Made by a program: the position numbers and the translations under genes
The notes under the pieces: model-generated
What the model was told of the DNA's origin: nothing
The model's input: the letters and a program-made list of their open reading frames with translations, nothing else
Database searches by the model: none
Part shown: one piece after another, positions 160 through 6,057 of the stretch
How positions within the stretch are numbered: position 1 is the first letter of the stretch
Layout: every line of letters starts with the position of its first letter
From: an uncultured archaeon
GTDB lineage: Archaea > Asgardarchaeota > Lokiarchaeia > Sigyniarchaeales > Promethearchaeaceae
Length of the DNA: 16,211 bases
Direction: 5' to 3'
Assembly: GCA_964426185.1 (NCBI GenBank)
Contig: CAYRPF010000026.1
Span: 1-16,211 of the forward strand

Positions 160-226
160 AAGAAAAAAGAAATAAAGAATAGAGAAAAGGAAAGAAAGGA
201 AAAAAAAGAATTCCGTTTACCACGGA
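160..226 (-). terminator. Probable selD terminator: small hairpin followed by a long pyrimidine/U tract
   Basis: TCCGT-GGTAA-ACGGA hairpin (226-212), followed on the minus strand by about 50 nt of T/C-rich sequence including T runs. Confidence 0.55.
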
Positions 227-228
227 GG

Positions 229-265
229 CTCAGGAGAAAACTTAAAGTTTACTCTTCTCCATCAC
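229..265 (-). promoter_or_regulatory. Eukaryote-like SECIS element in the selD 3' UTR
   Basis: The minus strand reads GUGAU-GGAGAAGA-GU-AAA-CUUUAAG-UUUUCUCC-UGAG. This gives an RUGA/GA core, an 8-bp helix (253-260 with 233-240) and an unpaired AAA (248-250) 11 nt after GUGA. It lies 44 nt downstream of the stop of a gene with an in-frame UGA. Confidence 0.85.
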
Positions 266-309
266 TGCATTGAAGAACTAAGTTCTAAGCAAAATAGCCG
301 CCAAAAAGC

Positions 310-1362
310 TTAGTAATCTTCAATTTCTCGATAGATGATCTTTTCATCAAATTTCACGCCATTTAAACCCGCTTCGATCACACCTATTTCCATCCACCAA
401 ACATTTGAAGAAGTCATCATTGTGGTGAAATCATCCCAGACATCCAAACCTACCGCAATCAACATCGGTCCGGCGATTTCTGATGATTCACCCTCTGCCA
501 AACCATAGCAAAATAGATCGTCCAACTGTAATGCATAGGAAATCACCGGTAATTGAGTAATACGTGCACCCATATTGGTATTCAACAACATCTCCTCTAA
601 ATGCCCTTTGAAGCCAAAACCGGTAATATCTGTCATTGCGTGAATTCCCTCAAAAAACCGCCCAGAATGAATTATTTCAGGAATCGGTTTATTTGATGTA
701 GTCATTATTTTGGTAGCTATTGAAATGGCACGATCGATCTTACTTGTATCATAGTCCTTCATCCAAGAAGTATCTGCCTTTTGTGCACGGTCAGCAGCCA
801 TTACAGGATGAATTCCCAGTGGTTTGGTTAAAATAAGGTGATCTCCAGTTTTTATGCCGCGTTTCTGGATTAGATGTTCGGTTTGTGCGATGGCATCAAC
901 GCTGCCGCCTAATAATGGCCAAGGATTCTGAATGGTATGTCCTCCTGCAATATCGGAGCCAAGACTCTTCAGCAAATCACGAGTTCCCCGCAACATATCT
1001 TGTGCAAACTTGGGCGGTAAATCAGTAGGTAAGCCCAAGAAACAACTGTAATTTAATATATGAAGTGCATTTAATGCATAGATATCATTGGTTACATTAA
1101 CAGCTGCAATTTTTCCCATGATATAAGGGTCATCATGAATCGGTGTTACAATATCCAGATTTGTTAAAAGACTTTGAGTCTCAGAGATGGCGGTGATGGC
1201 GCAATCTTCTGCGTCTGCATTTAAACCGACTTGATTTAGCAAATTTGAGAGATCTAAGGCAGGAAGTTTACAAGATCATCCATGTAGTTGTGTTTTTTCG
1301 GTCAATCGATAGCCTGTATTGGGTATTTTCTTAAAGATTACGGGCTGTCGTTTAAAACTAAT
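310..1362 (-). CDS. selD: Selenophosphate synthetase (selenide, water dikinase), selenocysteine-containing; about 350 aa with Sec29, probable ATT start
   Basis: The track ORF 310..1242 has SelD motifs (EDCAI, TPIHDDPYIMGKIAAVNVTNDIYA, GGHTIQNPW, LILTKPLG, HAMTDITGFGFKGHLEEM). Manual translation upstream in the same frame gives ISFKRQPVIFKKIPNTGYRLTEKTQLHG-TGA(1276-1278)-SCKLPALDLSNLLNQ, the RLT...G[C/U]xCK catalytic motif. The frame is closed by TAA at 1363-1365. The start codon is inferred: ATT 1360-1362 after the SD, with TTG 1303-1305 as the alternative. Confidence 0.95.
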
Positions 1363-1367
1363 TTAAT

Positions 1368-1375
1368 TCACCTCC
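1368..1375 (-). promoter_or_regulatory. Shine-Dalgarno GGAGGTGA of selD
   Basis: Perfect complement of the canonical 16S 3' tail (UCACCUCC), 5 nt upstream of the in-frame ATT. Confidence 0.8.
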
Positions 1376-1455: not shown

Positions 1456-4350
1456 TTATAAAATAATTTCCATTTCTTTCTGTAAAGTAGATAATTTTCC
1501 GAAAGGATTTTGGTAATTGATATTCAGCAGCCACCTCTTCAATTCATACTTTGTTGCTCTTTCTTTTTCTATTTTGAAAGTCCAACGTAAAATACGGACG
1601 GATTCGGGTTCAAATTCTCGAATAACTAATTCTAATGGATCACTCTGTCCAGGTTGAATCTTGAGAAAAGATGGATGCAGGAAAATTAAACTAAAATTGT
1701 TTAGAAAGAATTTTGTTGGATTATGTATTCTTAGATCAAAAATAATCTTATTTCCGATAATTTCCACCTTTCGATGCAGCTTAAGGAAATTTTCTCCCAG
1801 TGCCTTGGTGGGTTGAACCAGAGAATTATTACGAATCTCAGCAATAATTTTATGCTTTTTCAGAAGTTTAAAAACCGAATTTTTCAACTCTTCAATGGGT
1901 ATAGAATAAACACGAGCAAGTTGAAGAAATGAAAGTGGATTCATGTAACTTAAATATTCATTAATTTCTGCCGCAAAGATCTCTTCTTCAATAGAATCTT
2001 GAAATTCATCAAGAAGATTCATTAATTCTAATTTAGTTTTATTCCAATTCATGAAATAATTCTGCAATTCTTCAGAATTTATTCCTGAAAGATCGATTGT
2101 ATCTATTTTTTGGTAAACACTATCAATTTCCTTATTGTATTCTTCTACAGTATTAGAAATATTGTCAAAAGTCATTTTGACCATATTGCGCGCTTCTTTA
2201 AATCGTCGTTTTTTAATTTCTATAAAAATAGGGGTAGTAAGCTTGTCAAAATTTATTTTCATGTCACGAATATTTTGGACGGCTTGCAAAACTATCTTTT
2301 GTAGATTACTATTCAAAAGGTCAAATGTTATCTTTTTCTTTAGTTTATCTTGCTCGGGTGTCGGTGTTTTGATGGATTTTTCGAGATCTTTTATTCGATA
2401 AATTACGGTGGAAAGATATTGTTGGATTTCGATTTTTACATCAACCCAAAACATAGTTATATCTTTCAAGGCTTCTTTAAATTCGAGATTGGTAACCCAT
2501 AATTGCCCGATTTCAAATTCAAATGTATATAAATCTTTCCGAACCTGTGAAATCTTTTCTAATAATAATTCGGACACGGAATTCCCAAAAGATAAGGGAT
2601 CATCTTGGAATTGAGTTTCTATTTGTTCAATTTCTTCATATGTTGCCTTCATTTGTTCAATACGCTTTTTCAATTTTGAGATTTCTTTATTTAATTCATC
2701 TAGATAAGAATCCTTACGTTCTGAAATCATATTAAGTATCATATATTTTACATCAGAGATATTTTCTAAAACTTCTTCCTTGATTTCTTTGAATTCTTGA
2801 ATAGATTCCATAGAAAATCGTTTGAATTCGGACTTATTTAATAATTCTTCCATTTTATTTAATTTTTCGACTATTTTATTACTTTCTTCTTCCATATAGA
2901 CTTCTGCTTTTTGAAATTGATTTTGATTGATCAGTTTTTCGGCGTTTATGCGCAAGTCTTGTACAAATTGATGAAAAATCTCCAAGCTTTGATAAAAATT
3001 TTTTCGCTCTGCTTCAATTTCTTGGATATCTTGGTCAATATCTTCAAACAAAGTGTGAATTTTGGTGAGAGAAGCATCGATTTCATCCAAAACATCTAAA
3101 TCTTTTTCCTCTTTTTTATAATTCTGTAGATTTATAGCCGACCATACTGCTACTGATTTAATTCGGAGAATGTAAGTTAAATCGCCGAGTAACTTTATGA
3201 TTTGTTTTCGTTGGCGCCAATTTTCGGGATCTAAACTTAAATACATTCGGGCAAGTTCTTCTTCAAAAATATCACTCTTCTCTGAATATATTTTAATCAG
3301 ACAATCACTCACAAATTTCCTAAATTTCACCCCTGCATCTACTAATTGATGAAATAATATAGGTAGCATTTCTTTCATGTTTTGAACAACTATAAAAATA
3401 GAAGATTCCGTAATTCCTTCTAATACATCTTGGGAAAGATTATTTTCTTCAATGTACTGACGGAAAAATTTAAGAAGGGCAGGGCCTTGAACCCTACCAA
3501 CTTTAACAAAAGCATCAATGGTTTTAGTTTGAACCATCATGATGGAATCAGAAAACATATCAATTAAACGATGAAATAAAAGGATAAAATCATTAAAGAA
3601 AGAAGAACCAATCTCACCTACAATCCAAATTCCTTTTTCTCGAATTTCCCAGTCACCATCATTTAATAGCAGCAGAAGCATATCCACTAAATCGGCTCCG
3701 GTTAGGTGATGTGCTAAAGCTTTAACTACCTCGGTGGTTAAACCACGAATTTCTTCATCTGGATCTCGAATAAGCTTTATGAAATTCTGCTGAAAGATTT
3801 TTAGAAAATTCTTAGGGAGTTGAGAAGGAGATTTAATAAATTCCAACATACCTTCCAAAGCTTTCGCCCGAACTCGCCAAGAAGGATCTTCAAACATCTT
3901 AGAATATGTCAAATAAAGATCGGGATAATAATCAAAGGATTTCTGTAAAATTTCAGCTAACAATATCACTGCAGATTCACGCACTTTCTTATCTACGTCG
4001 AATAATTTTGATTCACATTTCTCAATAATTTGATCAAATTTCGAAATATCTGTATATCTGAAGATTTTTCGTAGAATTAAAAGAATTTCTTGCCGAATCC
4101 AAAATTCTTTATGATCTAAAAGTATTGGAGCATGCTTCATGGTCAATTCTACAGATTGTGCACTCTTATCACATAGAGCATCATAAACTTCCAAACAAAA
4201 AGCTAAAAAATCTTCATATTCAGATTGTAGCGCATATAAAAGAAAATTATTCGTTCGTTCTAAGGCTAATTCGTATCGGCGACTCTTAATTGCTTCTTGG
4301 ATAGAATGGATAAATTTATTACTGCTATTAGAAATTTCGGGATTGAACAT
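1456..4350 (-). CDS. 964-aa HEAT-repeat / coiled-coil protein with a PCI-like winged helix and a C-terminal beta-sandwich (Ig/appendage-like) domain
   Basis: HEAT signatures (LLDHKEFWIRQ, LFDVDKKVRESA, FEDPSWRVRAKA, IRDPDEEIRG, LNDGDWEIREKG, DPENWRQRK), then a heptad-rich middle. LSFLQLARVYSIPIEELKNSVFKLLKKHKIIAEIRNN resembles the PCI winged helix. The last ~105 aa show alternating beta-strand patterns. Confidence 0.8.
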   Translation of the reverse strand: MFNPEISNSSNKFIHSIQEAIKSRRYELALERTNNFLLYALQSEYEDFLAFCLEVYDALCDKSAQSVELTMKHAPILLDHKEFWIRQEILLILRKIFRYTDISKFDQIIEKCESKLFDVDKKVRESAVILLAEILQKSFDYYPDLYLTYSKMFEDPSWRVRAKALEGMLEFIKSPSQLPKNFLKIFQQNFIKLIRDPDEEIRGLTTEVVKALAHHLTGADLVDMLLLLLNDGDWEIREKGIWIVGEIGSSFFNDFILLFHRLIDMFSDSIMMVQTKTIDAFVKVGRVQGPALLKFFRQYIEENNLSQDVLEGITESSIFIVVQNMKEMLPILFHQLVDAGVKFRKFVSDCLIKIYSEKSDIFEEELARMYLSLDPENWRQRKQIIKLLGDLTYILRIKSVAVWSAINLQNYKKEEKDLDVLDEIDASLTKIHTLFEDIDQDIQEIEAERKNFYQSLEIFHQFVQDLRINAEKLINQNQFQKAEVYMEEESNKIVEKLNKMEELLNKSEFKRFSMESIQEFKEIKEEVLENISDVKYMILNMISERKDSYLDELNKEISKLKKRIEQMKATYEEIEQIETQFQDDPLSFGNSVSELLLEKISQVRKDLYTFEFEIGQLWVTNLEFKEALKDITMFWVDVKIEIQQYLSTVIYRIKDLEKSIKTPTPEQDKLKKKITFDLLNSNLQKIVLQAVQNIRDMKINFDKLTTPIFIEIKKRRFKEARNMVKMTFDNISNTVEEYNKEIDSVYQKIDTIDLSGINSEELQNYFMNWNKTKLELMNLLDEFQDSIEEEIFAAEINEYLSYMNPLSFLQLARVYSIPIEELKNSVFKLLKKHKIIAEIRNNSLVQPTKALGENFLKLHRKVEIIGNKIIFDLRIHNPTKFFLNNFSLIFLHPSFLKIQPGQSDPLELVIREFEPESVRILRWTFKIEKERATKYELKRWLLNINYQNPFGKLSTLQKEMEIIL

Positions 4351-4491
4351 AATTCTTCAGCGAATTTGTTGCTTCGTATTTATCTACAATTACATAAAAA
4401 GAATCTCTCTTATATTTTTTTATTTTGCTTTAGGATCAAAAAGCCGAAAATCTCGTAAATTTCATAAATTAGGGATTACTTTGAATTATTG

Positions 4492-6057
4492 ATGGCGAAG
4501 AAGAAAAAAAAAGCCGTGGCAAATCAAGATGATTTGTCAATGGAAGATTTAGGCATAACTCCGAAAGAACCCGTGAAGAAGACTTCTGTGAAAAAATCTA
4601 CTTCTAAGAAGACATCTGCGAAGAAATCCTCCGCAAAAAAGACCACTTCGAAAAAGACTTCACAGAAAAAAACAACTTCCAAAAAAAAATCTCCAAGGAA
4701 AACAACAAAAAAAACATCATCCTCAAAAAAATCCACCAGTAAGAAAACAACCTCAAAATCATCTAAGTTATCATCCATAAAATCCTCAGAAAATCAAGAT
4801 TTTATTCAATCTTCATGTAATGTTGGATTAGTTGGTCATGTAGATCATGGCAAAACGACCTTAGTGAAGGCATTATCAGGAACTTGGACAGAAAGATATA
4901 GCGATGAACAAAATCGGGGAATTACCATCAAATTAGGCTATGCTGAAACGGTTATTATGGAATGCCCGCAATGCAACTTAGTTCTTACAGAAGAATTAGC
5001 AAATAAAGCCCGAAAAAGTAAAAAAGATCCAAAGGGAAGATGTCCCGAATGTGGAGTCCCTTTAGAATTTCGCCGTAGAATCAGTTTTGTCGATGCTCCA
5101 GGTCATGAAATATTGATGGCCACAATGCTTTCAGGAGCATCTTTGATGGACGGTGCCATTCTTTTAATTGCAGCAAACGAGGATTGCCCTCAACCTCAAA
5201 CCAGAGAACATCTAGCAGCCCTTGAAATTGCAAAAATAGAAAATATCATCATTGTTCAAAATAAAATAGATTCGGTTAGCAAAGAACGAGTTATTGAACA
5301 TTATCACCAAATTAATGATTTTATAAAAGGAACCATTGCAGAAAATGCTCCCATCATTCCAGTATCTTCAATATTTGACGCAAATGTAGACAAAGTTATT
5401 GAAGCAATAGAAAAATATATCCCCTCACCAGATCTTGATGACGAATCAGATTTCTTATTCAATGTAGCCAGATCTTTCGATGTTAATCGACCTGGAACAC
5501 TCATTCAAGATTTAAAGGGAGGTGTTATTGGAGGAAGCATAGTCTCTGGTGTGGTTCATGTAGGTGATGATATTGAAATCAAACCTGGATTAAAAGATCC
5601 CGAAACAGGGAAATATCATCCTGTAATTACTAAAGTGGCATCTATTTATGAGGGATCTCATCCCCTCGAAATGGCTCGACCAGGTGGTTTGATTGCATTC
5701 GGAACATTACTAGATCCATCAAATACTAGAACTGACCAACTGATCGGCTCTGTTGTCGGCGCGGTAGGCACCCTTCCCGATGTTAAAATGACTGTACAAA
5801 TCGAAACTCATTTATTGGATACCGTTTTAGGAGCAGAAGAAGAAATAAAAGTTCAGCCTATTAAGAATAACGAACTTTTAATGATTGTTGTTGGAACATC
5901 ATTATCCGCGGGAGTTGTTACTAAGATTGGGAAGAAGAATGTTGTTACTTTGAAATTAAAAAGACCGCTGTGCGCTGTTGAAGGATCTATCACTGCAATA
6001 AGCCGTAGAATCAAAAATCGTTTCCGATTAATTGGATATGGATATATCGTAAATTAA
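4492..6057 (+). CDS. eif2g: Translation initiation factor 2 subunit gamma (aIF2-gamma) with a ~105-aa N-terminal Lys/Ser/Thr-rich extension
   Basis: GHVDHGKT P-loop, RGITIKLGY, Zn knuckle CPQC...CPEC, FVDAPGHEILMATMLSGA, PQPQTREH, QNKID, RSFDVNRPG, KGGVIGGS and C-terminal RLIGYG. ATG 4492 is preferred over TTG 4489. Confidence 0.97.
   Translation: MAKKKKKAVANQDDLSMEDLGITPKEPVKKTSVKKSTSKKTSAKKSSAKKTTSKKTSQKKTTSKKKSPRKTTKKTSSSKKSTSKKTTSKSSKLSSIKSSENQDFIQSSCNVGLVGHVDHGKTTLVKALSGTWTERYSDEQNRGITIKLGYAETVIMECPQCNLVLTEELANKARKSKKDPKGRCPECGVPLEFRRRISFVDAPGHEILMATMLSGASLMDGAILLIAANEDCPQPQTREHLAALEIAKIENIIIVQNKIDSVSKERVIEHYHQINDFIKGTIAENAPIIPVSSIFDANVDKVIEAIEKYIPSPDLDDESDFLFNVARSFDVNRPGTLIQDLKGGVIGGSIVSGVVHVGDDIEIKPGLKDPETGKYHPVITKVASIYEGSHPLEMARPGGLIAFGTLLDPSNTRTDQLIGSVVGAVGTLPDVKMTVQIETHLLDTVLGAEEEIKVQPIKNNELLMIVVGTSLSAGVVTKIGKKNVVTLKLKRPLCAVEGSITAISRRIKNRFRLIGYGYIVN
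4576..4755 (+). repeat. Degenerate 5-residue KK[ST][ST]x coding repeat in the aIF2-gamma N-terminus
   Basis: KKTSV-KKSTS-KKTSA-KKSSA-KKTTS-KKTSQ-KKTTS-KKKSP..., divergent at the nucleotide level. Confidence 0.9.

Follow-up and report, generated by a model that had tools for sequence, protein, structure and literature searches.

A selD gene with a predicted selenocysteine codon and an Asgard eukaryote-like SECIS in a Promethearchaeales archaeon

The window, a stretch of 16,211 nucleotides, carries on its minus strand a gene for selenide, water dikinase (selenophosphate synthetase, SelD), in which an in-frame UGA (1278-1276) is, judging by the sequence, very probably read as selenocysteine (Sec) by means of an Asgard eukaryote-like SECIS in the 3' UTR. 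The initial annotation had described selD as a Sec recoding cassette with a eukaryote-type SECIS, and this description holds for the frame, the Sec column, the Sec machinery and the hairpin, which is conserved and covaries. The window covers the opening 16.2 kb of a contig that is 36.7 kb long, in a metagenome-assembled genome (3.26 Mb in 155 contigs, 34% G+C, 92% completeness). The nearest named SelD locus, with 77% identity, is that of Ca. Harpocratesius repetitus FW102 (Promethearchaeaceae, Promethearchaeales), and a closed 4.4-Mb genome with the same SelD match is placed in the genus of the window. The host belongs to the Promethearchaeales (Lokiarchaeia), in the same genus as Ca. H. repetitus.

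The selD frame and its in-frame UGA

The selD coding frame (310-1362, minus strand) consists of 350 codons, one Sec codon included, and extends from a putative AUU start (1362-1360) to a TAA stop (312-310). In translation it is open over this whole length with a single TGA (1278-1276) inside, in the context ...TQLHG-U-SCK. Standard ORF calling shortens the gene to a frame that begins at TTG 1242, past the TGA, as the initial annotation had observed; the coordinates it gave for the frame, the TGA and the hairpin were all rechecked and are correct. The predicted 350-residue read-through product is a selenide, water dikinase. As a whole it scores 208.6 bits with TIGR00476 (SelD / selenide, water dikinase, NCBIfam), against a cut-off of 125, and 267 bits with the PRK14105 model, which is under the cut-off of 291 of that model. 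It contains the AIR-synthase-related N- and C-terminal domains (PF00586, AIRS, 55.5 bits, and PF02769, AIRS_C, 40.6 bits) and aligns to the SelD structures of E. coli, human and Aquifex.

The TGA, the predicted Sec codon, is residue 35 of the frame. The stretch YRLTEKTQLHG-U-SCK aligns with IRLTQYSHGAG-C-GCK in the loop of E. coli SelD, and the TGA therefore falls in the column of the catalytic Cys17. The lysine three residues on, which is E. coli Lys20, is conserved, as seen when U-S-C-K of the window is set against C-G-C-K of structure 3u0o, and the Asp-containing motifs of SelD also align to the solved structures. Human SPS1 has Thr in the Cys17/Sec column. Of the 151 genomes that sample the order, 137 contain a selD match at E <= 1e-30, and all of the matches listed have a TGA in frame. 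At the orthologous loci that were fetched (n = 29), the TGA always lies within H/F-G-U-S/K-C/V-K and is preceded by a conserved YRLT motif (YRLTxK...HG). The column, whose comparison across SelD homologues the initial annotation had proposed, is thus held as TGA in orthologues throughout the order, and the conservation of the peptide ahead of it is hard to explain unless the UGA is translated. Elsewhere in the genome TGA is an ordinary stop: it terminates 252 of 1400 long open frames, and the code is therefore not reassigned. In the largest family of the order, many genomes carry two selD copies on the same strand, ~1.3-1.7 kb apart and each with an in-frame TGA, in agreement with a duplication described in Huang et al. 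2024.

If the UGA were a true stop, selD would be a truncated or decaying gene that starts at TTG 1242 and has no catalytic loop. Such a reading matches standard ORF calling, and the full frame indeed lacks an ATG, GTG or TTG ahead of the conserved motif and is preceded by an in-frame TAA (1365-1363). Yet the 34 codons ahead of the TGA encode the conserved YRLT...HG loop, which can be aligned with SelD proteins of known structure. The TGA is shared by almost all orthologues, and a strong Shine-Dalgarno sequence stands before the upstream frame, with none before TTG 1242. We consider a true stop extremely unlikely. The probability that sequencing or assembly turned a TGT or TGC into this TGA, and that the enzyme is a Cys form, is close to negligible: the window does come from a single metagenome assembly, but the same TGA is found in relatives whose genomes were assembled independently, two closed genomes of the family among them, and the genome has both a dedicated SECIS and Sec machinery. 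The preferred reading of the UGA thus remains that of a Sec codon.

The 5' end of the gene has to be inferred, because no canonical start opens the full frame. The Shine-Dalgarno sequence, GGAGGUGA (1368-1375, minus strand), is arranged as GGAGG, 8 nt and AUU, with the in-frame TAA (1365-1363) in the spacer. Neither ATG nor GTG occurs between this TAA and the YRLT motif, and the only TTG is the Leu codon of RLT. In most orthologues, GGAGGUGA or a shorter form of it is located a few nucleotides before ATG or TTG. Three genomes of the window's genus have GGAGG, 8 nt and ATT, ATA or ATC, from which 17 codons lead to the Y/F of YRLT. A locus from another genus of the family (L018) has GAGGTGA followed only by ATA/ATC, with 6 nt from GAGG to ATA, and CTC as the Leu codon of RLT. 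Two members of the genus have an in-frame GTG inside the Shine-Dalgarno sequence; in the window, upstream GTG starts are excluded by the in-frame TAA. The simplest common reading of these sequences is that selD would be initiated at AUH in the window's genus and in that of L018.

The hairpin downstream of selD

The SECIS (228-268, minus strand) is defined by its layout, by covariation in orthologues and by a covariance-model match at 223-271(-). G265 of the hairpin is separated from the TAA stop of selD by 44 nt. Its core consists of GUGAU (265-261) on the 5' side and UGAG (232-229) on the 3' side, which form the tandem G.A pairs G263.A230 and A262.G231, followed by U261.U232. The main helix has 8 bp (260-253 with 240-233), seven of them Watson-Crick and one G-U, and is capped by a 12-nt loop (252-241) of the form UAAAC...G with unpaired UAAA at 251-248. 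The AAA (250-248) is located 11 nt past the UGA of the core. The earlier description of a hairpin 44 nt after the stop with a GUGA...UGAG core, an 8-bp stem and AAA at 11 nt was therefore exact. Its statement that there is no obvious lower helix has to be revised: a 2-bp closing helix (G268-C228 and C267-G229) is present, and these positions covary in orthologues. Across 24 orthologues, the two pairs form in 23 of 24 (five pair types) and 19 of 24 (three pair types), respectively, and among the elements of this genome in 6/6 and 4/6. The next two positions (columns 2-3 with 49-50 of the orthologue alignment) are unpaired, and that alignment thus lends no support to a longer lower helix. A 3-nt bulge, 266-264 (A266 G265 U264), separates the closing helix from the GA, so that the order of parts (closing helix, 3-nt bulge, tandem G.A, U.U, long helix) is that of a kink-turn. 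This layout and the covariation suggest that the SECIS of the window may take a kink-turn shape.

The loop may contain a 2-bp ministem, C247-G241 and U246-A242. The C of UAAAC and the last G of the loop are invariant among members of the family and the other elements of the genome and can close a mini-loop of 3-4 nt, while the second ministem pair covaries in selD of the window's genus (U-A vs C-G). Within the genus, the GA/GA core, UAAAC and the loop-closing G of the selD SECIS are fixed, whereas the two bases before the 5' GA vary, being GU in the window (223-271(-)), AC in Ca. H. repetitus (L016:1418-1466(-)) and UU in a third genome, G001 (L017:1428-1476(-)).

The same layout (NNGA-N, 6-8 bp, a loop with AAAC, and N-GA) is found 8-44 nt past the stop in 26 of the 27 readable orthologous 3' UTRs, one of the 26 elements having N-AA instead of N-GA. 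One locus, L020, stops at the contig edge, and another, L025 (G026), was left uncounted as a poor candidate (GUGAU, 6 bp, a 26-nt loop and CAA for NGA). A metagenome scan returned one locus, with 50% identity and too little 3' flank. Covariation was assessed in a MAFFT alignment of 24 orthologous elements, with that of the window left out. In this alignment all eight pairs of the helix vary on both sides by compensatory changes, and 78.6% of the cells are paired, compared to 59.5% in shuffles, none of 500 of which reaches the observed value. Controls with slid partners are 39-50% paired, against 79% for the true helix, and RNAalifold independently predicts the same 8 pairs. The core is thus kept and covaries downstream of orthologues; its lack of conservation there had been named in the initial annotation as grounds for abandoning the claim.

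A covariance model built from the 24 orthologues without the window ranked 223-271(-) first in a search of 37.8 kb on both strands, with a weak score (19.3 bits, E ~0.064 by a rough calibration). This model is dominated by the form with 6 bp and a ministem, which is typical of the other large family of the order. In the Infernal comparison proposed at the outset, the model made from the orthologues places the hairpin first, if weakly, and the SECIS families of Rfam do not match: cmscan of positions 1-1500 on both strands at E <= 10 found none, RF00031 (SECIS_1) included. A second model, made from family members and the other elements of the genome, was dropped because MAFFT had misaligned three rows in their 3' arms. 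The MFE fold of the 3' UTR is no more stable than shuffles (z = -0.99), and fold stability is therefore no evidence.

The SECIS is followed by a second small hairpin (226-212) and a run of eight U (207-200), seen in the fold (200-226, minus strand). A hairpin and a U-run likewise come right after the SECIS in H. repetitus and G001. Termination of archaeal transcription at oligo-U is established, and the hairpin with its U-run likely marks the 3' end of the selD transcript. The 7 nt after the 3' GA of the SECIS (223-229 (-) of the window, GCCUCC and one more) are identical in H. repetitus (L016), and the CCUCC within them is the complement of the GGAGG in the Shine-Dalgarno sequence of selD itself.

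The position of hairpin 268-228 just ahead of a U-run, its unremarkable stability and the lack of an Rfam match would all suit a terminator or a chance stem, in which case the real Sec signal would be located elsewhere. In bacteria, this signal is inside the coding region; another option is a SECIS of the euryarchaeal GAA_A bulge type (two stems), for which the descriptor found no match in 309-190(-). A terminator has no need of an invariant GA...UAAAC...G...GA or of compensatory changes, and it is the separate hairpin, downstream of the SECIS, that comes with the U-run. Furthermore, the grammar of the element is common to other selenoprotein genes of the genome. We therefore regard a terminator or a chance stem as highly unlikely and treat the hairpin as the SECIS of selD.

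Related elements in the genome and the Sec machinery

Five sites in the genome match the grammar in its strict form, in which GA is followed by a perfect 7-9-bp stem, a 9-13-nt loop that opens with RUAAAC and closes with G, and N-GA; the 30 simulated genomes of matched composition contain 0.03 such sites on average. The grammar was written after the matches had been seen, and this difference thus demonstrates its specificity and is not an independent test. The other four matches each lie behind a frame with an in-frame TGA, in line with the earlier suggestion that the same hairpin should be sought behind further UGA-containing genes: one follows a gene for a VhuD/FlpD with two Sec (Pfam, 158 bits), and three follow small frames. 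A looser grammar has 38 matches in the genome, against 18-28 (~23) by chance per simulated genome, which amounts to about 5e-4 per 150-nt UTR (~6.5 Mb scanned, both strands). A loose descriptor, which asks for RUGAN, 7 bp or more of stem and AA close to where the loop begins, has 176 matches. With such numbers, the loose and middle descriptors are too unspecific to be used alone. The hairpins found with the looser grammar include C86:6509-6551(+), C10:19139-19174(+), C138:2844-2875(+) and C34:14859-14898(-) of this genome (G000); one of them has a GGGA core and one a CCCA/UGGG ministem.

The VhuD/FlpD frame (158 codons, two in-frame TGAs) comes after a frame of 660 codons at C88:8398-10920 of the genome (L047:1892-4421, -), which is of the size of HdrA, is located in the HdrA position and also has two in-frame TGAs. 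A single SECIS is found 27 nt past VhuD/FlpD. An HdrA-VhuD arrangement with one common SECIS has been published (PMC4989117), and the two frames on C88 correspond to this tandem, the HdrA being assigned from its size and position. A further frame, at C42:1973-2590 (L045), has no family match and contains two adjacent TGAs (C-U-U). A perfect SECIS-type hairpin (2550-2583) overlaps the end of the frame, whose hard stop is reached 17 nt into it. Another SECIS-like stem, weaker than the first, spans 2415-2460 and begins directly at the TGA TGA. The C-U-U frame is a candidate only, either for a Sec-Sec protein or for a double stop.

The genome has the machinery for Sec that the initial annotation had suggested looking for, namely tRNA-Sec, SepSecS, PSTK and an archaeal SelB. 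The tRNA-Sec (UCA) is on contig C3, and SepSecS scores 439 bits, above the cut-off. SelB (491 residues), encoded on contig C10, contains aSelB_III, the archaeal SelB domain III, and its best solved relative is M. maripaludis SelB (2e-78). The solved relatives of the KTI12-family kinase are exclusively archaeal PSTKs (phosphoseryl-tRNA(Sec) kinases). A search of the genome for the L7Ae family returned only two small L7Ae-family frames and no L7Ae-domain protein of the size of SBP2; Mariotti et al. 2016 likewise found no SBP2 in Lokiarchaeota (PMC4989117).

Directly upstream of selD in the window (1456-4350 (-)) is a gene for a 964-residue protein with N-terminal HEAT repeats, the remainder of which is long, Glu/Lys-rich and coiled-coil-looking and has no family match. 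A homologue of aIF2-gamma (GTP_EFTU and eIF2_C; 4489-6057 (+)) is extended at its N-terminus by ~100 residues that are rich in Lys and show a weak match to a histone-H1-like family.

In the mechanism that we propose, Sec-tRNA(Sec) would be brought by archaeal SelB and decode the UGA at 1278-1276, with Sec insertion directed by the 3' UTR SECIS (268-228) from ~1.0 kb downstream. The hairpin might recruit SelB directly or through a kink-turn-binding protein, so that the candidate readers would be L7Ae and L30e, kink-turn binders encoded on contigs C84 and C15, or SelB itself. Rother et al., in 2000, reportedly found that the SelB of M. jannaschii failed to bind its SECIS in vitro. Eukaryotic SBP2 needs the AUGA bases. 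The bases before the 5' GA may be free to vary here, in which case an archaeal SECIS reader would recognise the kink-turn shape. The presence of Sec in SelD may couple synthesis of the enzyme to the supply of selenium; that the synthesis of SPS2 depends on its own product is an old idea. It is a tentative suggestion, somewhat less probable than even, that a deliberately weak AUH start and a Sec codon 34 codons further on make up two layers of control, and that the SECIS reader sees the kink-turn shape and not AUGA.

Comparison with known SECIS elements

The class of element, the gene family and the GUGA variant of the core have all been published, and the interpretation given here is right and not new; as a result, the finding itself leaves the understanding of the system unchanged. 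The initial annotation had already stated that the concept was known, and Sec-containing SelD with a eukaryote-like SECIS is indeed described for Lokiarchaeia and other Asgard archaea in Mariotti 2016 and Huang 2024. The small additions made by the window are the variation of core bases within one genus, a covarying 2-bp closing helix with kink-turn layout and an apparent AUU start. Gene callers still truncate selD in Asgard genomes of this kind.

Loki-like SPS genes have one in-frame UGA at the Sec column and a conserved eukaryote-like structure behind the gene (Mariotti et al. 2016, PMC4989117). The window shares with this 'SPS lokiSECIS' the protein family, the Sec column and the phylum. 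In both, the signal is found in the 3' UTR, its GA/GA core is kink-turn-like, there are adenines that stay unpaired, and the G that closes the loop is conserved. In the SPS lokiSECIS, unlike other Loki SECIS, the main stem is shorter and an apical stem is added (type II-like; PMC4989117). In contrast, the selD SECIS of the window shares its 8-bp helix, and nearly all of its loop, with the elements of the genome's other selenoprotein genes, and its ministem has at most 2 bp; the form of the selD SECIS with 6 bp and a ministem dominates in the other large family of the order.

SelD is a selenoprotein in >90% of Sec-using Asgard archaea (Huang, Xiao and Zhang 2024, PMC11227280). In the same survey, eSECIS-like structures were found behind 85% of Asgard selenoprotein genes, those of selD being mostly of type II (PMC11227280). 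The Huang 2024 descriptor consists of a GA_[G/A]A core, an upper stem of 7-15 bp with at most two mismatches and, in type I, an apical loop of 8-20 nt; in type II, the loop is replaced by a bulge of 4-12 nt, a ministem of 2-8 bp and a loop of 2-6 nt. The SECIS of the window agrees with this descriptor in its core (G263 A262 / G231 A230), its 8 bp without a mismatch and its 12-nt loop, and it has, like the Asgard eSECIS-like elements, unpaired UAAA at the start of the loop and a location in the 3' UTR of a UGA-containing gene. The 12 nt of the loop can also be divided into a bulge of 5 nt, a ministem of 2 bp and a smaller loop of 3 nt, and the element therefore fits both types. The initial annotation had suggested that the GUGA core might be a minimal variant. 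This suggestion loses its ground, as a GUGA_GA core has been reported in selD of Thorarchaeia (PMC11227280); here it is found in a Lokiarchaeial genus.

The selD SECIS of Methanococcales (euryarchaeal, GAA_A bulge type) is likewise located in the 3' UTR and dependent on archaeal SelB, but its GAA_A bulge structure is absent from the UTR of the window. Compared to eukaryotic SECIS (RF00031; SEPHS2 and others), the element of the window differs in having an 8-bp helix above the core, a 2-bp lower helix and no internal loop on the 3' side, and also in lacking an Rfam match and an SBP2 homologue (PMC4989117; two small L7Ae-family frames here). Both are found in the 3' UTR, display an RUGA...GA quartet with AA(A) 11 nt after the UGA, and act, or in the window would act, over a distance of ~1 kb. 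The window thus adds one more well-supported case of the Asgard selenocysteine system, a proposed link between archaea and eukaryotes in the reading of UGA as Sec.
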